A DNA stretch of 64,000 bases from NCBI GenBank assembly GCA_026415775.1, contig JAOAGL010000001.1:414831-478830 (forward strand), in the 5' to 3' direction. Under the pieces are notes generated by a model. That model saw only the letters and a list, made by a program, of their open reading frames with translations, was not told the origin of the DNA and searched no databases. Shown in pieces: positions 12,410-50,310 of this stretch. Positions within the stretch are counted from its first letter, which is position 1. Every line of letters starts with the position of its first letter. This DNA is from Patescibacteria group bacterium (lineage in GTDB: Bacteria > Patescibacteriota > Minisyncoccia > UBA6257 > JAAZHW01). Position numbers and translations under genes: made by a program.

Positions 12410-13429
12410 ATGGGTAATAAACTCCAAAAACAAATATCAAATTACCTCATTCCACAAGTGGATAATGAATTTCAACCTCATTCTTTAAGAACAAAGTCGG
12501 TGTTTTGGATTTTTATTGCCATTCTACTTTTAGAAAATTTCTTCTTTTTATTAGCTTATTATTTAATTCCTTCTTCTGATTTTCTCGCCTCGCTTATTTC
12601 TACCAGCATTGTTCAATATACCAATCAATATCGCCTAACTTCAAATGCACCCCAGTTAGTTATTAATCCTTTGCTTAACGAAGCAGCACGTCTTAAAGCC
12701 GAAGATATGGCCCAACGAGGATATTTTAGCCATAATAGTCCGGATAATATTACGCCTTGGGAATGGTTAAAAAAAGTTGGATATGATTACCTTTATGCCG
12801 GCGAGAATTTAGCTCTTAATTTTACCGATTCCCAAGAAGTAGTTGAGGCTTGGCTTAATTCAGAATCACATCGTCAAAATTTATTAAATCCTAATTTTAA
12901 AGAGATTGGCATAGGCATTGCAAAAGGCACTTATAAAAATCAACCAGCAATTTTCATTGTTCAATTTTTTGGCACACCAAAATTATTAGCACAACAAACA
13001 CCAGCAACTCCATCTAATTCTAATAATTTAGTTTCATCTCCCACCCCAGCAATAAAAATTCAACCCTCACCAAAATTAACCCCTTCACCAATTGTTACTC
13101 CAACACCAGAACAAAAATTTATTACAACAACCCCTCAAGTTTTGGCTATTTCCCCCATCGCAACAACATCTGCGATGCCTAGTATTAACCCCACATCCTT
13201 CTGGGCATTAATCCTTCAAAAAGTAGTTGCCAATCCAAAAAGTTCTCTTAATTCCTTATTGGAATTCTTCGCTATCTTTATTATCATTGCTCTTTGTCTA
13301 AAAATATTTATTAAAATTGATATTCAATATCCGACACTCATTATTAATGGTGTCTTAATCTTAATCGTTATTATTTTCGCCTGTTGGTTAAATAATTATA
13401 TCTTTAATCTCTGGCCGCAAATAATTTAA
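12410..13429 (+). CDS. CAP/SCP/PR-1 (YkwD-like) domain protein with N- and C-terminal TM segments and a PT-rich region
   Basis: CAP motifs: HR(Q)NLLNPNFKEIGIGIA, GYFSHNSPD, YAGENLA. The ORF-finder start at 12374 is TTG inside the promoter, so the ATG at 12410 is preferred. Confidence 0.65.
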   Translation: MGNKLQKQISNYLIPQVDNEFQPHSLRTKSVFWIFIAILLLENFFFLLAYYLIPSSDFLASLISTSIVQYTNQYRLTSNAPQLVINPLLNEAARLKAEDMAQRGYFSHNSPDNITPWEWLKKVGYDYLYAGENLALNFTDSQEVVEAWLNSESHRQNLLNPNFKEIGIGIAKGTYKNQPAIFIVQFFGTPKLLAQQTPATPSNSNNLVSSPTPAIKIQPSPKLTPSPIVTPTPEQKFITTTPQVLAISPIATTSAMPSINPTSFWALILQKVVANPKSSLNSLLEFFAIFIIIALCLKIFIKIDIQYPTLIINGVLILIVIIFACWLNNYIFNLWPQII

Positions 13430-16411: not shown

Positions 16412-17185
16412 TTAGTTAATATTTTTACAAAATTTAATTTGAGAAGTAATAAACAAAAAACCAACGATTAAAAGAATTGAATTGATTAATTCCCAAATAT
16501 AACTTATAGAATAACCAGCTACCGGCAAAAACCAAAATGCTGGTGGCACGCTTAACATTACAGAATAATTAAAATAATTTAAAAGCGCTCCTAATAAATT
16601 ATTTACAATTAATATTATCGGGCCTATTTTTTGTATTTTTAATAAGTTTGTTTGTTTGTCGAATAAAAGACGCAGGGCAACTAATAAAATAAAAATTCTT
16701 GCTGGAAAAATGAAAATATAATACAATGTCTTCACTGGTATATAATCAGAAAATAATCCTTTGTAGGCAACAAAATAATAAAACATCACAATAAAAGCAA
16801 CTACTGCCCAAGCATGCAAAAAAATAAACACACGTTTTTGACAGAGTTCGGAACATAAAGTTCTTAATACCAAAATAATAAGTATTAAAGCAATAAGATA
16901 TAATGGTAAAGCAACAGCAAAAACCCAATATATTCGTTCCACAACAAATGTGAATCCCAGCAAATTAAGAGCGAAAGGCAATCGTGTCCAATAAACAAAA
17001 AACAAAACTAAAGATATGTATAAAAAAATCCTTTGTTGTTTTTGACTTTTAAGATATTTTATAAAAAAATAAACAGAAAAAGTTAAATCTAAAACAAAAG
17101 CAAGCAAAGAAAAAACAGCTAAAATTGGTTTTGCTTGTAATCCTAATAGCTGAATATTTTTTATAGCAGAAAATATTTTATACAT
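16412..17185 (-). CDS. Polytopic membrane protein, hypothetical
   Basis: Six to eight hydrophobic segments. No recognisable family. Confidence 0.45.
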   Translation of the reverse strand: MYKIFSAIKNIQLLGLQAKPILAVFSLLAFVLDLTFSVYFFIKYLKSQKQQRIFLYISLVLFFVYWTRLPFALNLLGFTFVVERIYWVFAVALPLYLIALILIILVLRTLCSELCQKRVFIFLHAWAVVAFIVMFYYFVAYKGLFSDYIPVKTLYYIFIFPARIFILLVALRLLFDKQTNLLKIQKIGPIILIVNNLLGALLNYFNYSVMLSVPPAFWFLPVAGYSISYIWELINSILLIVGFLFITSQIKFCKNIN

Positions 17186-17202
17186 TTTTATTATAACAGA
17201 CC

Positions 17203-17347
17203 AATTAAAAATAAAAAATAGACCTAGGAGGTCGCTATTTGCTTAGGCCGGTTACGCCACTAGCTCCACATGGCCCAGGCGTCCATATTACAGGCCATGT
17301 TTCATCGCCTCCTTATTTAATTATATATTTTTCTAAACAAATTTCAA
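17203..17347 (-). promoter_or_regulatory. Promoter (TTGAAA-N16-TATAAT) plus a structured ~110-nt leader with a GC hairpin and a terminator/anti-terminator pair; candidate riboswitch or attenuator
   Basis: -35 at 17342-17347 and -10 at 17320-17325 on the minus strand. The leader has a catggcc-N17-ggccatg hairpin (17269-17299). A terminator gacctcctaggtc with a T-run (17203-17233) sits 17 nt before the ATG, and the 5' AGGAGG can alternatively pair with its CCUCCU. Confidence 0.4.
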
Positions 17348-17371
17348 AGAGTTATCCACAGCCCTAATTTT

Positions 17372-19939
17372 CTACTTCTGATGATTTAAATCCAATTGAT
17401 GTTTTTTATAGTATTTTAATTTAACACCCTCGCTAATAATAAAGTATATTGTAACCAACAAAATTACAATGATTACAAATTGAATGGGAACTTTTTGAAA
17501 ATGTAAGATATCAATTCCAAAACTTGTAAAAGGTAAGAAAATAGTAACCAATGTAGCTATCAATCCTAAAAAGATTAATGGATATGATGGCTTGATTGTC
17601 TGATAAAATTTTTGCGTTGTTCGAACAGCAAAGATTAATACCAATTCCGTTAAAATGCTTTCAATAAACCATAAAGTTTGAAGGTTTTTTTCTCCCATAC
17701 GATAAAAAATAGCAAAAAAAATGAAATCAAAAATGGTGCTCACAATAGCCAATCTAATAATTAAAGGTAGCGTTTTTTGCATTTGATAGCTTTTGGGTCT
17801 TTTTAATTCCTTTGTTTCTACATTATCAGTAGCAATAGCAATCATTGGAAAATCGGATAATAAATTAACTACTAAAATTTGAACGGGAAGCATCGGCAAA
17901 AAAGGAATAAATAAAGAAATAAGGGCAATGGAATAAAAATTGCCGAAATTAGAAGCTAATGTTGTTTTGATGTATTTATCTAAATTATTAAAAATTTTCC
18001 GACCATAAGAAATTCCCTCAATAATTACATTAAGATCGTTTTCCAAAAGAATAATATCAGCTATTTCACGAGAAATATCAGCAGCAGTGTTAACGGCAAT
18101 AGCCACATTGGCAAGTTTTAAAGCAGGCGCATCATTAATTCCCTCCCCCAAAAATCCAACTTCATACTTTTTCTGAAGCGATTCAATAATCTTATATTTC
18201 ATTTCTGGCGAAATACGAGCAAAAACATCAATCTCTTCGCAAGTTTTATCAAATTCTTCCGGAGATAATTGTTCCAATTCTTTACCAGTTCTAACCTCAT
18301 TCTTATTAGAGATTAATCCAATTTGATATCCTATATATCCAGCCACCTCTCGACTATCGCCAGTAATCAGCTTAACTCTAACTCCTAATTTTTCTGCTTT
18401 AGTAATTGTTTCTTTAGCTGTCTTTTTTAACGGATCAGCAAAAATTAATAGTCCAAGTAGATTAAAATTATCCTCTGCTTCATTTATGTTTTTAAAAAAT
18501 TCCCCTTCTTTTATTTCCCGATAGGCAACCGCCAAAACACGCCTTCCCTCTTCACCAGCCTCCTTAATCTTTCTTTCAAAAATTGTAAAATCAAATTTAC
18601 CTTCTACAATTTTAGCGGCCTCTATTTTTACTGTTTTTTCAAAAATCTTTTCTGGAGCACCTTTTGCAATAAGAAATCGTCTGCCATCACTACTCTCAAC
18701 CACAATACTGTTAATCAATCTTTTTAAATCAAAGGGGTTTTCGGCAATTAACTTAAATTCTTTCAATTGCGAAGTAAAATTGCTTGCGTGTTTTTCAACA
18801 ATGGCTTTATCAAAAGCATTTTCAATATTTTTTTGTTTTTTTAATAACTCTGTAGAAAGCAATGAAAAAAGAATTGTTTTTTCTATATTATTAGCAAAAA
18901 TTTCATCTAGAGTCATTTTGTTCTCCGTTAATGTCCCTGTTTTATCAGAACATAAAATTTTAATATTGCCTAAATCTTCAATGGCATTCAATCTTTTGAC
19001 TACTACCTTTCGTTTTGCTAATTTTAATGCTCCCTGAGACAACGAAAAAACTACCACCGTCGGTAATGCTTCGGGGAGAATGCTAACAATTAAAGCAATA
19101 CAAAAAATGAGATAATCAAATATATTTTCACAGTTAATAAAAAGACGCAAGATAAAAACAGCTGTAATAAAAAAAACGACCATTTTAATGATTAATCTTG
19201 AAAATCCTAATAATTCTTTTTCATAGAAACTTTTTTTACCAATCTCTTCCACAAGCTTAGAAATTTTTCCTACTGCTGATTCTCTAATATTATTTATAAC
19301 AACCCCCTTTGCTTCCCCATTTATTATTGAAGTACCAGAGAATATAATATTTTTTGCCTCAAAAATTTCTTTTGTAGCAGAAGTCAGTGGTTTTTCGTCT
19401 TTTTCAACAGCTTTGGATTCACCTGTTAAAATACTTTCATCAATAATTAAATTTTTAGCTTCAATAATTCTTAAATCAGCCGGCGCAATATCGCCAGCAG
19501 ATAAAACCACAATATCACCAGGCACCAAATATTTTTTATTAACAATCACCCTTTCCCCCTCTCTAATTACTTTAACATCATTAGGCAAAAAACTTTTTAA
19601 AACTTCTATTACTTTCTCAGCGCGATATTCTTGAACAAAACCCAAAACGACATTAATCACAACAAAAAGAAAAATAAATAAAGAATCTATTATTTCGCCA
19701 ATAATTAACGAGATAGCGCCAGCAATGAATAAAAGATAAGTGAATGGCGATTTAAATTGAGAAAATAAAATATGAAACCATCTTCTTTTTTTGAAAGGAA
19801 GCTCATTAAAACCAAATTTTAATAAACGTTCGGTTACTTGTTTTTCTGTTAATCCATTAACCGAGCTCTCCAATAATCTCAAGGATTCTTCTATATTTTT
19901 ATCGGTAAAATCAACAAAATTTAAATTTTTTTTCTCCAT
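17372..19939 (-). CDS. P-type cation-transporting ATPase (MgtA/P2-like)
   Basis: ILCSDKTGTLTENKM, GEGINDAPALKLANVAIAV, PEALP in M4. Confidence 0.8.
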   Translation of the reverse strand: MEKKNLNFVDFTDKNIEESLRLLESSVNGLTEKQVTERLLKFGFNELPFKKRRWFHILFSQFKSPFTYLLFIAGAISLIIGEIIDSLFIFLFVVINVVLGFVQEYRAEKVIEVLKSFLPNDVKVIREGERVIVNKKYLVPGDIVVLSAGDIAPADLRIIEAKNLIIDESILTGESKAVEKDEKPLTSATKEIFEAKNIIFSGTSIINGEAKGVVINNIRESAVGKISKLVEEIGKKSFYEKELLGFSRLIIKMVVFFITAVFILRLFINCENIFDYLIFCIALIVSILPEALPTVVVFSLSQGALKLAKRKVVVKRLNAIEDLGNIKILCSDKTGTLTENKMTLDEIFANNIEKTILFSLLSTELLKKQKNIENAFDKAIVEKHASNFTSQLKEFKLIAENPFDLKRLINSIVVESSDGRRFLIAKGAPEKIFEKTVKIEAAKIVEGKFDFTIFERKIKEAGEEGRRVLAVAYREIKEGEFFKNINEAEDNFNLLGLLIFADPLKKTAKETITKAEKLGVRVKLITGDSREVAGYIGYQIGLISNKNEVRTGKELEQLSPEEFDKTCEEIDVFARISPEMKYKIIESLQKKYEVGFLGEGINDAPALKLANVAIAVNTAADISREIADIILLENDLNVIIEGISYGRKIFNNLDKYIKTTLASNFGNFYSIALISLFIPFLPMLPVQILVVNLLSDFPMIAIATDNVETKELKRPKSYQMQKTLPLIIRLAIVSTIFDFIFFAIFYRMGEKNLQTLWFIESILTELVLIFAVRTTQKFYQTIKPSYPLIFLGLIATLVTIFLPFTSFGIDILHFQKVPIQFVIIVILLVTIYFIISEGVKLKYYKKHQLDLNHQK

Positions 19940-19944
19940 GTTGC

Positions 19945-20493
19945 TTACTGTCTTCTATACAGACCAACTAAATAACTTTCAGCTAAAATATGATTTCTTA
20001 TTGCTGCCAAAACCTCTTCGCGCGACACGCCTTCTGGTAAATCTAAAGTTGTATCAAGCGCAAAAAGTCTAAAATAATAACGGTGAATACCATAAGGTGG
20101 ACATGGACCACCATAACTTAATTTTCCAAAATCATTTTTGCCTAATTTTGCGTCAACAGGCACTGAATTTTCCTCAATTAATTTTGTTTCAGCAGGAATA
20201 TTAAAAACCAACCAATGAAGAAAATTTCCCATTGGCGCATCTGGATCATCAACAATTAAAACCAAACTTTTTGTCTCTGGAGGAATTTCTTCAAAATAAA
20301 GCGGTGGATTAATATTTTCTCCATCACAAGTGTATCGCGATGGTATCGTTTCATTATTTTGAAAAGCTGGACTAAAAATTTTCATATTGGTTTGATTAAC
20401 AACTTTTTGATTATTATTTTTGAAATTATAAAAAATTATCAAAATAATTCCCACCAATAAAATAATTGGCACTACAAACCAAATTTTTTTCAT
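19945..20493 (-). CDS. YbhB/YbcL family phosphatidylethanolamine-binding (PEBP) protein
   Basis: DPDAP, HWLVFNIP, GKLSYGGPCPPYGIHRYYFRLFALD. Confidence 0.75.
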   Translation of the reverse strand: MKKIWFVVPIILLVGIILIIFYNFKNNNQKVVNQTNMKIFSPAFQNNETIPSRYTCDGENINPPLYFEEIPPETKSLVLIVDDPDAPMGNFLHWLVFNIPAETKLIEENSVPVDAKLGKNDFGKLSYGGPCPPYGIHRYYFRLFALDTTLDLPEGVSREEVLAAIRNHILAESYLVGLYRRQ

Positions 20494-20510
20494 ATTTATT
20501 TAAAAATTTT

Positions 20511-20798
20511 TTATCCTTTCTGATTTTCCTTTGCTTCATCAAATTTTCGCCAAGCTTCAGCTACCGCTGGTTCAACTACATCTAACTCTGCCAAAATTCT
20601 TTCTTTAATTTCAAAACTATTAACTTCATTTCTATCTACAACCGAATCAATAACAATTTTTGCTACCCTACCCACAATTTCATCAATTCTTTCTGGCGTT
20701 AAACCCGCATCAATAGCAGCTGCTCGAATAGAATTTTCAATTTTCATCGGATCAAACGGCTCTCTCTCACCTGATTTTTTAATAACAAAATTGGTCAT
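20511..20798 (-). CDS. Stand-alone ATP-cone domain protein
   Basis: VIKKSGEREPFDPMKIENSIRAAAIDAGL matches the ATP-cone consensus (VIKRDGRxEpFdxeKI). Confidence 0.6.
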   Translation of the reverse strand: MTNFVIKKSGEREPFDPMKIENSIRAAAIDAGLTPERIDEIVGRVAKIVIDSVVDRNEVNSFEIKERILAELDVVEPAVAEAWRKFDEAKENQKG

Positions 20799-34639: not shown

Positions 34640-35011
34640 TTATAACCTTTTTAATTCTTCCAATCTTTGCTCTATTTCTTTTAATTCTTTTTCTCTTTCT
34701 TTAATTTTTTCAATTAATTCCTTAGCCTCCTCTGCCATTTTTTCTAATTCCACAGCCTTTCTCAATCTCTCTTCTTGTTCCTCCATTTCAGCTAAAACTT
34801 TTTGATGGCGCTCGTTTAATTCCCGCCATTCTCTATCGAACTCTTCTTGTAAGATTCTTTTTTTTATATCTGTATCCGGCTCAATTCTTTTTAATTGCCC
34901 TTCTTCTTCCTCAAATTCAACAAAATCAGCCGCAGTTCGTTGTTCCATTCTCTTTTTTTCCTCTTCTCTCTTTTTTAATTTTTCCAAAATATCTTTGCGA
35001 AATTCTTCCAT
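34640..35011 (-). CDS. Highly charged coiled-coil protein (E/K/R-rich), hypothetical
   Basis: 123 aa with heptad-like EEKKR repeats. No motif. Confidence 0.4.
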   Translation of the reverse strand: MEEFRKDILEKLKKREEEKKRMEQRTAADFVEFEEEEGQLKRIEPDTDIKKRILQEEFDREWRELNERHQKVLAEMEEQEERLRKAVELEKMAEEAKELIEKIKEREKELKEIEQRLEELKRL

Positions 35012-35030
35012 ATATTTATATTATACCAAA

Positions 35031-36524
35031 TTATTCTTTAGTTGTCAATAACGATTTTAATCGCTCTTGGACAATATTAGGATTATATCGACCTTTGGTT
35101 TCTCGCATTACTTGACCAACTAGAAATTGTAAGGCATTAGCTTTTCCTTTTTGGAAATCCGCTACAGGATTAGGATTTTCAGCAATAATCTTTTTAACTA
35201 TTTCATCAATTTCTGAAGTATCAGAAATTTGAAAAAGATTTTTTTCTTTAATTATCACTTCGGGATTGGCACCGCTCTCAAATATTTCTGCTAATACTGA
35301 TTTAGCCGCAGCTGATGAAATTTTATTTTCATCAATAAAATTAATTAATAAAGCGAAGTGATTGGTTGGAATTTTTAAATCGCTAATTTTATAGTTATTT
35401 TGAAACATTAAAGCTCTTAAATCAGTAATAAGATAGTTATAGGCCAACTTTATTCTTTTTTCGCGTCGCTCTCCTTCTAAGGGTTTTAGAGCATCCAATT
35501 CCATTACAACTTTTTCAAAATAATCAGCTAATTCGAAATCATAAACCAATTCTTCTATTTCTTTTGGTTTAAATCCAAACTCTTTCATAAATCTTAAACG
35601 TTTTTCATTGGGTAATTCTGGCACTTCACGTTTAATTTCTTCTAAATCAAACTCTTCATTAACTTTTATAGGTTTTAAATCTGGCTCTGGGAAATAACGA
35701 TAATCATGCGCTTCTTCTTTTTTTCGTTGCGATATTGTTTTTTGCGTTTTCTCATCCCAACCGCGCGTTTCCTGAATAATCTTCTCGCTTTTTTCTAATA
35801 AATCAATTTGTCTTTCCATTTCATACTTTATCGCCTCTTCTACTGCCTTAAATGAATTGAGATTTTTAATTTCTACTTTTGTCCCCAATCCTTCTTCATC
35901 TTCTTTTTTCACAGAAATATTAACCTCGCAACGCATCTCCCCTTTTTCCATGTCGGCATTAGCAATTTTTAAATATCTAATAATTAATTGTAATTCTTCG
36001 CAAAATTTTTTGGCCTCTTCCGCTGAATGAATGTCGGGCTCAGTTACCAATTCAGCCAAAGGTACACCTGCTCGATTAAAATCAACGTAAGTTTTATTAT
36101 TTTCATGAATTAATCGTCCTGTGTCTTCTTCTAAATGAATACGGCGAATGCGAATTTTTTTAAATTCAAAAAGGTTGGTTTGCGGATTTATAAAAGGAAT
36201 TTCTAAATAACCATTTTCACAAAATGGCATATCGTATTGCGAAATTTGATATCCCTTTGGTAAATCCGGATAAAAATAATTTTTTCTATCAAATTTTGAA
36301 ATTTCTCGCAAATGACAATTTAAAGCGCTTCCTAATTTTAAAACACTTCTTATTGCTTCTTTGTTTGGTTTAGGTAAGGTGCCTGGATGCCCCAAACAAA
36401 TCGGACAAACATTTAAATTAGGATGTTTTTCCTCTGAATCATTCAAACAATCACAAAACATCTTATTTTTTGTTTTTAACTCAATATGGATTTCTAAACC
36501 AATAGTTGCTAAATAATTGGACAT
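35031..36524 (-). CDS. gatB: Asp-tRNA(Asn)/Glu-tRNA(Gln) amidotransferase subunit B
   Basis: N-terminus MSNYLATIGLEIHIELKTKNKMFCDC..., 497 aa, C-terminal YqeY-like tail. Confidence 0.9.
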   Translation of the reverse strand: MSNYLATIGLEIHIELKTKNKMFCDCLNDSEEKHPNLNVCPICLGHPGTLPKPNKEAIRSVLKLGSALNCHLREISKFDRKNYFYPDLPKGYQISQYDMPFCENGYLEIPFINPQTNLFEFKKIRIRRIHLEEDTGRLIHENNKTYVDFNRAGVPLAELVTEPDIHSAEEAKKFCEELQLIIRYLKIANADMEKGEMRCEVNISVKKEDEEGLGTKVEIKNLNSFKAVEEAIKYEMERQIDLLEKSEKIIQETRGWDEKTQKTISQRKKEEAHDYRYFPEPDLKPIKVNEEFDLEEIKREVPELPNEKRLRFMKEFGFKPKEIEELVYDFELADYFEKVVMELDALKPLEGERREKRIKLAYNYLITDLRALMFQNNYKISDLKIPTNHFALLINFIDENKISSAAAKSVLAEIFESGANPEVIIKEKNLFQISDTSEIDEIVKKIIAENPNPVADFQKGKANALQFLVGQVMRETKGRYNPNIVQERLKSLLTTKE

Positions 36525-37122: not shown

Positions 37123-37519
37123 TAAAAATTTTTATCCACACTGGCTCCAATTTTTCACTCTCAGCTAACTTTTTAATTTCTTCTGGAGTAAACCACCTAT
37201 ACCTTTTAACTTCTTCCTTTCGCACCCTAACACTTCCCGTAAAACCTGCTTTAAAAACCCACCAGTAATGCGATTTAGAACCTCGGCGGCAATGATTTTT
37301 ATAAAATTTTCTTTTCTTTATCAATAATTTTAACTTTCTAACTTTCAGGCCAACTTCTTCTCTCGCTTCTTTGATAGCAGCGTTTTTTGGTGTTTCTCTG
37401 CTCTCAATATGACCCGCTACCCCAGCCCAATAAAAAGGAAATCTTTTTCTATCAATCAACAAGAATTTTCCGCCTTTCTCTATAACAACTCCGACACTCT
37501 TTTTGCTACATTTTTTCAT
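37100..37519 (-). CDS. NUDIX hydrolase
   Basis: Nudix box GHIESRETPKNAAIKEAREEVGL (GX5EX7REUXEEXGU). Confidence 0.8.
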   Translation of the reverse strand: MKKCSKKSVGVVIEKGGKFLLIDRKRFPFYWAGVAGHIESRETPKNAAIKEAREEVGLKVRKLKLLIKKRKFYKNHCRRGSKSHYWWVFKAGFTGSVRVRKEEVKRYRWFTPEEIKKLAESEKLEPVWIKIFKIIKVLK

Positions 37520-40504: not shown

Positions 40505-41392
40505 CTACCTTCTTTTATTATAAAATAATTTTACTAATAAACCAATTACTAAAATTGCTATAATAATTAAAATCAATTTTTCAAATAAAACTCTATAAAA
40601 ATAAACTGTTCGTTGATTACTATTACCAAAATTATCCACAGCCAAAAATTGAATAGCCCAAATATTTTTAGAAAAACCAAAGGGATTAGTTATTTCATAC
40701 CAATCACTCCATTGAAACCATTTTTTTACTCTAGCAAAATCTTTAACCATTCCAGAGTTATCTTTTGTTTCAAAAATTAAAAACTTCTCTTTGCTGTTGA
40801 AAGGATTATCAGCTATTCTAAACAATAAAATTTCTGGCTGAATTTTATCTTCCTTAACTATCACTGGTCCTTGTTTAACAACCAAACCAGAATTTTCTTG
40901 ATTATCACCTTCTATCTTGATTTGTGAAATATACAAAGGGATATTTTTAATTTCTATTTCATCAGCCATTGTCCCTTTGCCATCAGCCAAATAAGCAGCT
41001 GCTTTTTTAAAAACAAAATTTTCTTGTCCAGCTTTTAGCGCTTCAAAAATTAACGCAATAATTTGTCCATTTTCACCAACAAATGGTTGAATGGAGCCTC
41101 CTTGTAAAATAATTTCATTTTGATTATTCACTTCGATTTTTTTCCAAATATTTATAATGGAATTATCTTTATCAAATTGCTTAAATTTTATTAATTCGGA
41201 AGGATATTGAACAATTAAATCATATGCATTAAGCGGTTTATCAGAATCAACGCGAACATAAACAATAAATTCCAAAGATTTATTATCGGGTTGAATTCCA
41301 TCAAAATAAAAAACTGTTTTAGCGTCCACGCGCAAACTCAAGAAAAAAGAACAACAAATAAAGATTAAAAATAATATTCTGGTTTTTTTCAT
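40505..41392 (-). CDS. Secreted/anchored protein with a cohesin-like domain (paralogous to the N-terminus of 38431-40494)
   Basis: LNAYDLIVQYPSELIKF... and AAAYLADGKGT share the LADGKGT motif with its neighbour. Signal peptide and C-terminal TM (LILIIIAILVIGLLVKLF). Confidence 0.4.
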   Translation of the reverse strand: MKKTRILFLIFICCSFFLSLRVDAKTVFYFDGIQPDNKSLEFIVYVRVDSDKPLNAYDLIVQYPSELIKFKQFDKDNSIINIWKKIEVNNQNEIILQGGSIQPFVGENGQIIALIFEALKAGQENFVFKKAAAYLADGKGTMADEIEIKNIPLYISQIKIEGDNQENSGLVVKQGPVIVKEDKIQPEILLFRIADNPFNSKEKFLIFETKDNSGMVKDFARVKKWFQWSDWYEITNPFGFSKNIWAIQFLAVDNFGNSNQRTVYFYRVLFEKLILIIIAILVIGLLVKLFYNKRR

Positions 41393-43524: not shown

Positions 43525-43620
43525 TTTTTATTTTATTAATTAAAAATCGACCTTATTTTGATTCTTTAATCTTATTATAAAATTTTTTAATTCAATCAAC
43601 AAGTGAATTATCCACAACAA

Positions 43621-48490: not shown

Positions 48491-50260
48491 TCAAAAATTA
48501 ACAACATTAATCTGACACATCGTTACTAAATTATCCGTTTGATAAATAATCGGGATACTAAAATTGCCTTTCTGAGAATTAGGCAAAGCAATTATTTTTA
48601 ATACTAATTCTTTATCATCTTTGTCTGGAGTAATAACATAGTCGATATTTTTAGCAAAAAATATTTCAAGACCCTGAGGTAAATTGCCGATAGTTATCTT
48701 TTGAAACAACGCATTTGGGTTTTTGTTCAAACGCACATTAACTTCTTTTACATCACCTTCTTTAATTTGGATATTAAATGGTTCTACCGAACAAGAAAAC
48801 GATGAATTGCTTTCGATATTTAAATTTTTAATCTCTGTTAATTCCTTTGTTTTCATTTTTAAACTATCCAGTATTTGTTGAACTTCAAAAGGAAATTGGA
48901 TTGGTGTGGGCGTCGGCGTTATTGTTATTGGTTCGGTAATTTCGGGTGTTTCTTCTATTGCTTCATATTCAATTTCCAACTGCGCGCCATCCAAAAAAGC
49001 AATTAAATTATCCTCTAAATTGGTGTTTAAAGTTGATTCGATACTGATTTGTAAATTATTGATTTCTAACCAGTTGGTAAGCGTTAATTCAAATTCTGTT
49101 TGATAATTTTCTTTATTATCAATGATTGTCAAAACTTGCCAATTTTCGCCATCCAAAGTGTATTTAATGATAAACAAAGGCGCTAAAGTCGGCGTTGGCA
49201 AAGTAGTGGATGTTATTTCTGCTGAAGGAGTAATTTCTAAAGCGGGGCTTTCGCTTGTTTCAGGAGTAGAAGTTTCGATTGTCGCCATGGGTGTTTCGAC
49301 TGGCGTGAAAGAATCTTCTGTTTCAAGAGGCATTTCGATTGGAGAAGCTGATGGTTCTGAAGAAGGTGTTGGCTCTAAAGTGGAAGCGGGAGTGGAAATG
49401 TAAGTTGGTTCTGGTGTTGGGGTATTTTTTAAAGTGGGCACAGCAGTTGGGTTGTTTTCTAGCGACGATTCGGTTGGAGATGCTTCTTGAGCCAAAACTT
49501 TTTTCAAAAATATTTTTAACAAAGAAAGTGGCGTTGGCGTTGGTCCTTCGGATTGAGTCGGTGTAGGTGTTGATGTTGGTTGTTCTAATGGAGTTGGTGT
49601 TTGTTTTAAAATTGGAGTTTGTTCAGTTGTTGGTGTTAATTCAATTTCTGGGCTTGATTCGATAGTTTCAGTTGAGGTGGAATTGGTAGATTCAATATTT
49701 GTTTCTGTGGGTGAAAACATAAGTGTATTTTCTTCACTCGGGGAAGGAATTTCTTCCGGTGGAACAATTATCATTGTTGGTGTTGGTTCAATTAAGTTTA
49801 AATCATTAAGTTCTTGTTGTGTTATTAACCATTCATTTTTATTTCCGATTCTAAAATTAAGTTTTAATGTTGCGCCGGTAATTTGTTTGTCGTCGGTTTC
49901 AATAAGGGATGGATTTTGAAAACCGCCAAAAAAAATCTGTTTTATTCCTCCGCCATCAAAAATAGCTGAATTATTTTCATTAAAATATTTTAGCTCAGCA
50001 TCAAAATCTAAATCCGGTTGATCAATGGCTTTATCAACATTATTCCAATTTCCCAAAGCTGAACTAGGGTAAAAATAAATAATATCAGCTTTTAAAACAG
50101 CGCTATAAAAAAGCCAGCCAGTAATAATTAAAACAATAAAAATCATTAACCAATTAATAATTTGGCTTCTCTTTCTTAAATCCAAAATTTCTGTTTCTTT
50201 AGCTTTTTGAATATCGGTAAAATAAGCTAATGTTTTCTTTTTTGCCTTAGCCCTCATCAA
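48491..50260 (-). CDS. Membrane-anchored protein with long Pro/Thr/Ser/Glu-rich low-complexity region, hypothetical
   Basis: N-terminal TM (IINWLMIFIVLIITGWLFY) and a PT/ST-rich middle section. Confidence 0.45.
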   Translation of the reverse strand: MMRAKAKKKTLAYFTDIQKAKETEILDLRKRSQIINWLMIFIVLIITGWLFYSAVLKADIIYFYPSSALGNWNNVDKAIDQPDLDFDAELKYFNENNSAIFDGGGIKQIFFGGFQNPSLIETDDKQITGATLKLNFRIGNKNEWLITQQELNDLNLIEPTPTMIIVPPEEIPSPSEENTLMFSPTETNIESTNSTSTETIESSPEIELTPTTEQTPILKQTPTPLEQPTSTPTPTQSEGPTPTPLSLLKIFLKKVLAQEASPTESSLENNPTAVPTLKNTPTPEPTYISTPASTLEPTPSSEPSASPIEMPLETEDSFTPVETPMATIETSTPETSESPALEITPSAEITSTTLPTPTLAPLFIIKYTLDGENWQVLTIIDNKENYQTEFELTLTNWLEINNLQISIESTLNTNLEDNLIAFLDGAQLEIEYEAIEETPEITEPITITPTPTPIQFPFEVQQILDSLKMKTKELTEIKNLNIESNSSFSCSVEPFNIQIKEGDVKEVNVRLNKNPNALFQKITIGNLPQGLEIFFAKNIDYVITPDKDDKELVLKIIALPNSQKGNFSIPIIYQTDNLVTMCQINVVNF

Positions 50261-50310
50261 TAATATTATAACACTTTTATTTTGAATGTTTTTATTAAGT
50301 TATCCACACA

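Follow-up and report, generated by a model that had tools for sequence, protein, structure and literature searches.

The GC-rich leader that lies between an 855-aa ORF (stop at 17372) and a 257-aa ORF (ATG at 17185) on the minus strand is a class II cyclic-di-GMP (c-di-GMP) riboswitch, for which binding of c-di-GMP is predicted. Riboswitches of this class are RNA sensors of the bacterial second messenger c-di-GMP. The explanation of the whole element that we favor, and that we consider likely, has three components: the class II aptamer; a sigma-70-type promoter of its own; and an antiterminator/terminator OFF switch acting on the gene for the 257-aa membrane protein. The riboswitch class is already well described, and routine Rfam annotation would find this member. 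What is new is limited to the following: the host, a member of the CPR (ultrasmall bacteria) without Shine-Dalgarno use; the expression platform, which is probably of the OFF type and uses the 5' strand of the aptamer; and the target, an uncharacterised 7TM protein. A first-pass annotation made from the letters had described a riboswitch-like leader with its own promoter, upstream of a membrane-protein gene and richer in GC than its surroundings. The riboswitch is borne out by a match to the Rfam family RF01786 at 71.8 bits, and the leader is indeed a GC-rich segment within a window (the whole 64-kb stretch of DNA analysed) of 33% GC.

The aptamer and its conservation

An Rfam scan of positions 16900-17700, run with permissive filters and listing matches to E<=10, recovers one significant match: the c-di-GMP-II riboswitch aptamer, RF01786, at 17321..17237 on the minus strand (score 71.8 bits, gathering threshold 53.5 bits; E-value 4.5e-16), with the model covered completely (positions 1-84 of 84; cmscan). 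The Rfam scan that the first-pass annotation had set beforehand as a check on the leader was in this way answered by a strong match. When the whole window is scanned the E-value is 3.6e-14, and RF01786 is the sole non-tRNA family above threshold in the 64 kb. Identity, conservation and covariation of the aptamer, like the alternative pairings and energies given further below, are in silico results.

The aptamer proper (17245..17313, minus strand) comprises P1 (AGG/CCU), P2 (GGC/GCU), the kink-turn (GAUGA / GGA), P3 and a pseudoknot. The P3 hairpin (17268..17300, minus strand) is formed by ACAUGGCC (17300-17293) and GGCCAUGU (17275-17268), which close a 17-nt loop; the hairpin catggcc/ggccatg picked out at first pass is real, its extent being 8 bp and not the 7 bp given there. 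Within the P3 loop lies the 5' arm of the pseudoknot, ACGCC (17278..17282, minus strand), which pairs at 5/5 positions with the 3' arm GGCGU in the 3' tail (17254..17258, minus strand). Compared with the Rfam consensus GCAC:GUGC, this amounts to two compensatory changes. In the cmscan alignment the highly conserved core positions all agree with the consensus (GGAGGCGAUGAA, GGAGC-AGUGG, AACCGGCC), and the nucleotides of the kink-turn and core (GA..C.AUGAA / GGAGC.AGU / AACCGGCC) are identical at the upper-case consensus positions, an agreement at the level of sequence only. P2, P3 and the three inner pairs of P1 are standard pairs, while the window has mismatches where the Rfam model extends P1 outwards; these outer pairs would be absent because the promoter is predicted to set the start of the RNA at ~17313, the first base of the 3-bp P1 (AGG/CCU).

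The pseudoknot can be placed among other members by means of 139 pattern hits drawn from GTDB genomes and metagenomes. Its arms are paired 5/5 in 116 of these, against ~52 expected from shuffled partners, and 21 covarying arm combinations are seen, of which ACGCC/GGCGU is the second most common; this variant is frequent in ordinary family members of several phyla. Given the 5/5 pairing and the common arm combination, the aptamer is an ordinary and intact member of class II. These observations also bear on the proposal that a class II fold senses some other ligand here, be it another cyclic dinucleotide or the ligand of a clan variant motif. The Rfam clan concerned, CL00127, includes c-di-GMP-II-GAG and c-di-GMP-II-GCG, and two overlapping clan matches of lower score were suppressed at the site; further, the selectivity of class II aptamers is reportedly lower than that of class I aptamers (PMC11477304), and no diguanylate cyclase is seen in the 84 kb examined. 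RF01786 is, however, the top-scoring member of its clan at this site, 18 bits over its gathering score, the core positions match its consensus and the pseudoknot arms are those of ordinary members, which makes a different ligand very unlikely.

Another set of ligands had been put forward at first pass: ions, fluoride or guanidine, with the flanking P-type ATPases as the clue. A riboswitch for ions (Mg2+, Mn2+, fluoride) or for guanidine, or attenuation by a leader peptide, in connection with cation ATPases would suit an element located between genes for an MgtA-like and a Ca-type P-type ATPase and containing short ORFs. Yet no M-box, yybP-ykoY, crcB/fluoride, NiCo or ykkC/guanidine family matches at E<=10 over 16900-17700, the aptamer being of the c-di-GMP class II type, and the ATPases gave no information on the ligand. 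In the orthologous locus L007 the gene downstream of the ortholog codes for a sigma factor and not for an ATPase; hence, association with the second ATPase is not a constant feature. The tiny ORFs (MKHGL etc.) do exist but are incidental, being situated inside the invariant nucleotides of the aptamer core; this, together with the lack of Shine-Dalgarno use in the genome (motifs in 2/49 genes), led us to reject attenuation by a leader peptide. The ion, guanidine and attenuator readings are refuted by the Rfam scan in conjunction with the orthologous leaders, and their residual probability is negligible.

RF01786 is found directly upstream of each close ortholog of the 257-aa protein: in L001/L002 (67.1 bits; protein identity 77%), in L008 (64.0 bits; 70%) and in L007 (61.0 bits; 73%). 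The conservation of the leader that the first-pass annotation had wanted checked is thus observed, at 61.0-67.1 bits. The four leaders (window, L001, L007, L008) have the aptamer, the promoter and the terminator in common, and in their alignment the -10 box, the aptamer core, the terminator and the start region are invariant despite protein identities of 70-77%, a degree of divergence at which conservation of a leader is meaningful. When base pairs are counted at positions anchored on invariant motifs, compensatory changes are observed within this clade of four at several positions: P1.3 (A-U or G-C), P3.1 (A-U, G-C or G-U), P3.3 (A-U or G-C) and P3.6 (G-C, G-U or A-U). Several pair types per helix position also occur across 136 distinct pattern-matched sequences, not all of them verified family members, from the collection scans and the present loci.

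Outside this clade the association fades. A fifth ortholog (L003-L006; 61% identity) lacks an Rfam match even at E<=1; a decayed aptamer remnant is recognisable there in the alignment (L003 5835-6000 / L006 1170-1333), with one pseudoknot arm 2 nt shorter, the invariant C-G pair of P2 gone and no terminator. The distant 7TM homologs (P0008, P0009, P0021; loci L136-L139) have no riboswitch upstream. Therefore, the riboswitch link appears to be limited to a narrow clade and to have been lost once. A metagenome scan with a pattern for the pseudoknot type of the window returned 7 loci, all from GC-rich organisms, with no new orthologous leader among them.

Promoter, terminator and the predicted direction of the switch

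The promoter reported at first pass, TTGAAA-N16-TATAAT, is present at 17347..17320 on the minus strand. Its -35 hexamer (TTGAAA, 17342..17347) and -10 hexamer (TATAAT, 17320..17325), both on the minus strand, match at 11/12 positions in a consensus scan, in which promoter-like hits overall are no commoner than in shuffles (10 found against 8.7 expected). The -10 is invariant across the orthologous loci and a TTG at the -35 distance is roughly retained. A spacing of 7 nt after the -10 would place the transcription start at ~17313, the first base of P1. The same 7 nt is the most frequent distance from -10 to ATG among the leaderless-looking genes of this genome, and in L008 the predicted start likewise coincides with the beginning of P1, which has 4 bp there.

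Just upstream of the -35 there is a perfect DnaA-box 9-mer, TTATCCACA (17352..17360, plus strand), of which the window holds five copies against 0.6 expected, a count reached in 0/100 shuffles. The other copies (37132-37140, 40632-40640, 43608-43616 and 50300-50308) are all on the plus strand in the same orientation; three copies end 26-29 nt upstream of a minus-strand TATAAT, i.e. just upstream of the -35 position, and the copy at the riboswitch promoter is retained in L001, L007 and L003. TTATCCACA may be a promoter-proximal regulatory site that is part of promoter control.

The aptamer is followed by a predicted intrinsic terminator (17207..17233, minus strand) made up of the hairpin GACCU-CCU-AGGUC (17233-17221) and the U run UAUUUUUUAUUUUU (17220-17207). 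The first-pass annotation had this hairpin and U run right and erred in their distance to the ATG at 17185, which is 21 nt and not 17 nt. In the window the terminator has a 5-bp stem followed by UAUUUUUU, the hairpin alone amounts to a weak -5.5 kcal/mol, and a simple automatic terminator search missed it; the counterparts in L001, L007 and L008 have a 7-bp stem (AUCGACC/GGUCGAU, -9.8 kcal/mol) and then a U run. The terminator starts 18 nt past AACCG and 12 nt past the 3' strand of P1, and has no nucleotide in common with the aptamer.

The 5' arm and loop of this terminator are overlapped by a further segment, CG-A-CCUCCU (17226..17234, minus strand), that can pair with the 5' strand of the aptamer, AGGAGGCG (17313-17306). 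This is the AGGAGG:CCUCCU alternative pairing that had been proposed as a terminator/antiterminator arrangement, and it stands: in the window the duplex has -12.9 kcal/mol, and only 16/2000 shuffles are as strong. Across the four leaders the AAGGAGGCG : CG-A-CCUCCU duplex ranges from -12.9 to -16.5 kcal/mol, energies that are matched by 16, 0, 5 and 68 per 2000 shuffles of the downstream segment. The helix is within the MFE fold of 3/4 leaders, and a fold forced to contain it is more stable than the aptamer secondary structure plus terminator by 7.9, 8.0, 7.1 and 2.6 kcal/mol. As AGGAGGCG supplies the 5' half of P1, the bulged A and the 5' half of P2, neither the aptamer nor the terminator can form together with the long-range helix, and so we take this helix to be an antiterminator. 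Its variation among the leaders is exclusively wobble-compatible (C to U), with no true compensatory change, since the aptamer leaves its 5' strand no freedom to vary.

From these parts we infer ligand binding, the start and termination of transcription, and the direction of switching, along the following lines. Starting from its own sigma-70-type promoter, the RNA would begin at the first base of the short P1. When the ligand is absent, AGGAGGCG would pair with CG-A-CCUCCU ~80 nt downstream; with the terminator's 5' arm occupied by this antiterminator helix, RNA polymerase would read through, and the 257-aa 7TM protein would be made. With c-di-GMP bound, P1, P2, the kink-turn and the pseudoknot would hold the 5' strand inside the aptamer, and the released GACCU would pair with AGGUC before the U run, terminating transcription. 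As locking of the aptamer by its ligand would release the terminator arm, OFF logic is predicted, and OFF is the most likely direction. It is weakened by three features: the wobble-only variation of the antiterminator; the weak terminator of the window; and the MFE fold of L008, which is the terminator state, the energy gap in that leader being only 2.6 kcal/mol.

The characterised class II switches act as ON switches (PMC11477304, PMC9495366), and the same aptamer could in principle operate in that manner here, with c-di-GMP preventing termination as in the Clostridioides difficile examples. A rough census of the family offers a precedent: 57/110 members with an intact pseudoknot have a detectable terminator, and 41/57 of these terminators overlap the 3' end of the aptamer, which is the ON design, clearly displayed by GC-rich metagenome examples; 16/57 start downstream of the aptamer, though some of these 16 are probably spurious. 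The terminator hairpin at 17233-17221, however, belongs with the latter: as it shares no nucleotides with the aptamer, the folded aptamer would be unable to block it, and the sole strong alternative partner of its 5' arm is the 5' strand of the aptamer, which is free only when the aptamer is unfolded. Further, in two Saccharibacteria loci discussed below (L071, L010) the terminator is likewise well separated from the aptamer on its downstream side, and both read as OFF-type from their sequence. An ON switch is accordingly unlikely in our estimate.

The relationship of the switch to known c-di-GMP riboswitches is as follows. With c-di-GMP-II (RF01786) it shares, at full length, P1, P2, the kink-turn, P3, the pseudoknot and the core nucleotides, as well as a position in the 5' leader with an intrinsic-terminator platform. 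It differs in four respects: the logic is apparently inverted relative to the C. difficile class II switches (OFF and not ON), because the antiterminator uses the 5' strand of the aptamer; P1 is short (3-4 bp), its first base coinciding with the predicted transcription start; the host, one of the Patescibacteria, lacks Shine-Dalgarno use; and the target is an uncharacterised 7TM protein and no pilin, adhesin or signalling operon. The characterised examples include the C. difficile switches in front of the pilin operon, CD2831, CD3246 and cmrRST. The c-di-GMP-I (GEMM-I) OFF switches, such as that upstream of flgB in C. difficile, have the same proposed outcome, in that c-di-GMP promotes premature termination, but their aptamer fold is unrelated and the leader has no GEMM-I match.

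Within the same superphylum, three Candidatus Saccharibacteria MAGs pass the same Rfam threshold with RF01786 at 59.5-69.5 bits (L071 3027-3110; L010 1870-1953, minus strand; L022 2994-3078). As in the window, the terminators of L010 and L071 do not overlap the aptamer; the candidate antiterminators in these genomes, in contrast, appear from the sequence to use the 3' strand of P1 and not the 5' strand. L071 and L010 look OFF-type and L022 looks ON-type. The targets differ too, being secreted or surface proteins and no 7TM protein: the next gene in L071 codes for a 970-aa secreted amidase-like protein, and TasA/camelysin-like secreted proteins are encoded ~470 nt and farther downstream in L022. 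With the 16/57 non-overlapping terminators and the OFF-like L071 and L010, the OFF design would be a minority in the family and not unique to this lineage. Elsewhere in the collection, tandem class II c-di-GMP aptamers occur in two uncultured-bacterium MAGs (L050 1803-1886 and 1981-2064; L114 1395-1479 and 1584-1665), and another MAG carries a c-di-GMP-II-GAG variant, RF03169 (L109 3226-3315; 53.9 bits).

The manner of translation initiation constrains what the leader can do. A Shine-Dalgarno-like motif precedes just 2/49 genes of the window (ORFs >=120 aa), and many genes have a TATAAT 7-8 nt before the ATG (e.g. 35031-36524, 48491-50257, 34640-35011 and 12410-13429), which suggests that leaderless mRNAs are widespread in this Patescibacteria genome. 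As Shine-Dalgarno sites are almost never used, the AAGGAGG of the leader is best taken as part of the aptamer core (consensus GGAggCgaUGAa) and not as a ribosome site; for the same reason translational control by sequestration of a ribosome site is implausible and was rejected.

The same habit of the genome lends some appeal to a second promoter. A conserved extended -10-like element, TGTTATAAT (17190..17198, minus strand), which may possibly be a second promoter or a piece of the initiation region, is located 4 nt before the ATG. It could drive the gene, leaving the riboswitch to tune additional read-through, from the upstream promoter or the ATPase gene, or to make a short terminated RNA. 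As an extended -10, TGTTATAAT is perfect, and it does not vary between the window, L001, L007 and L008; the genome often puts TATAAT a few nt before the ATG; and in C. difficile the stronger promoter of some riboswitch-linked genes is located past the riboswitch (PMC11477304). The geometry, however, is awkward: the element ends 4 nt before the ATG against the 7-8 nt of leaderless-looking genes, so that a start 7 nt downstream would hit the start codon, and there is no second ATG nearby (MYKI...). Conservation of the aptamer with compensatory changes would also be hard to explain if it had no effect on the gene. We therefore regard a second promoter as doubtful, and prefer control of the 257-aa gene by the riboswitch and its own promoter. 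The segment between the terminator and the ATG, AAUUGGUCUGUUAUAAU (17190-17206), is as a whole invariant in the four orthologous leaders, and also holds a second UUGGUC, a repeat of the 3' arm of the terminator.

The 7TM protein and its gene neighbourhood

The product of the regulated gene (16412..17185, minus strand) is a membrane protein of 257 aa for which a 7TM GPCR-like fold is predicted. It belongs to no described family, and neither Pfam nor NCBIfam yields a match. At 90% identity, just five clusters of this protein exist in a set of 5.8 billion, and a profile search of 1.84 billion representatives recovers only 41 relatives at E<1e-3, most of which are stand-alone proteins of ~250 aa. 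An AF2 model built from 5 sequences is poor (pLDDT 56.8) and a second model is good (pLDDT 88); a Foldseek search against the PDB reveals generic 7TM similarity only (best E 0.034). We predict, on the strength of the model, that the protein represents a tiny uncharacterised family with a GPCR-like 7TM fold. One distant relative, P0021 (944 aa; L139 599-3433), joins the 7TM region to a further ~700 aa in which Pfam detects nothing and a single additional hydrophobic segment is present. This fusion hints that the 7TM module might be able to anchor, or sense for, a larger surface protein.

The upstream gene, i.e. the 855-aa ORF, codes for an MgtA-like P-type ATPase (TIGR01524 at 583.8 bits, just under the cut-off of 610.75), and the gene following the 257-aa ORF for a Ca-type (PMR1-like) P-type ATPase. 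The latter begins 38 nt after the 7TM gene in L001, a gap short enough that co-regulation of the Ca-ATPase may occur there; the corresponding gap in the window is 247 nt and includes promoter-like boxes. At the L003-L006 ortholog locus two extra genes (DUF3175 and a 249-aa ORF) are inserted before the second ATPase. On the other side, a stand-alone 95-aa ATP-cone protein and a PEBP-family protein (19945-20798) precede the MgtA-like ATPase, an order that is kept in L001, L003 and L004. The flanks encode ribosomal L10/L12, sigma-70, DnaG, DnaK/DnaJ, GyrB and NrdD, and the presence of these housekeeping genes indicates that the locus is part of the chromosome.

c-di-GMP in the Patescibacteria

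The genomes of Patescibacteria are very small, few of their regulators are known and hardly any of their signalling has been characterised; c-di-GMP is the second messenger of the decision to attach or swim. A motif scan found no GG[DE]EF in the 64-kb window, and the GGDEF, EAL and HD-GYP Pfam families have no match in ~20 kb of added flanks (two of 10 kb); the contig is at least 492 kb long, and this search for a cyclase covered ~84 kb of it. Within the literature covered, no paper describes a c-di-GMP riboswitch occurring naturally in Patescibacteria. Diguanylate cyclases are reportedly encoded by MAGs of the CPR (PMC9938205), and, given this and the RF01786 aptamers of the Saccharibacteria, c-di-GMP is plausible as the ligand.

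Should the complete genome have no diguanylate cyclase, the c-di-GMP would not be self-made and could be, for example, host-derived. It is a long shot, but one can picture an ultrasmall and probably epibiotic cell that controls a lineage-restricted GPCR-like 7TM receptor through an OFF-type class II switch, reading c-di-GMP that is not its own; if true, this would mean that a nucleotide signal passes from one cell to another.

Knowledge of the riboswitch class itself is unchanged by this member, whose apparent OFF logic represents a less common platform design in a class described mostly as ON. As a natural ligand-controlled leader in a genome without Shine-Dalgarno use, it may help towards the inducible-expression tools that the field lacks. 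For the biology of these bacteria it means that at least this lineage and some Saccharibacteria would wire c-di-GMP directly to RNA, and that the riboswitch offers a regulatory handle on an otherwise anonymous family of 7TM membrane proteins.
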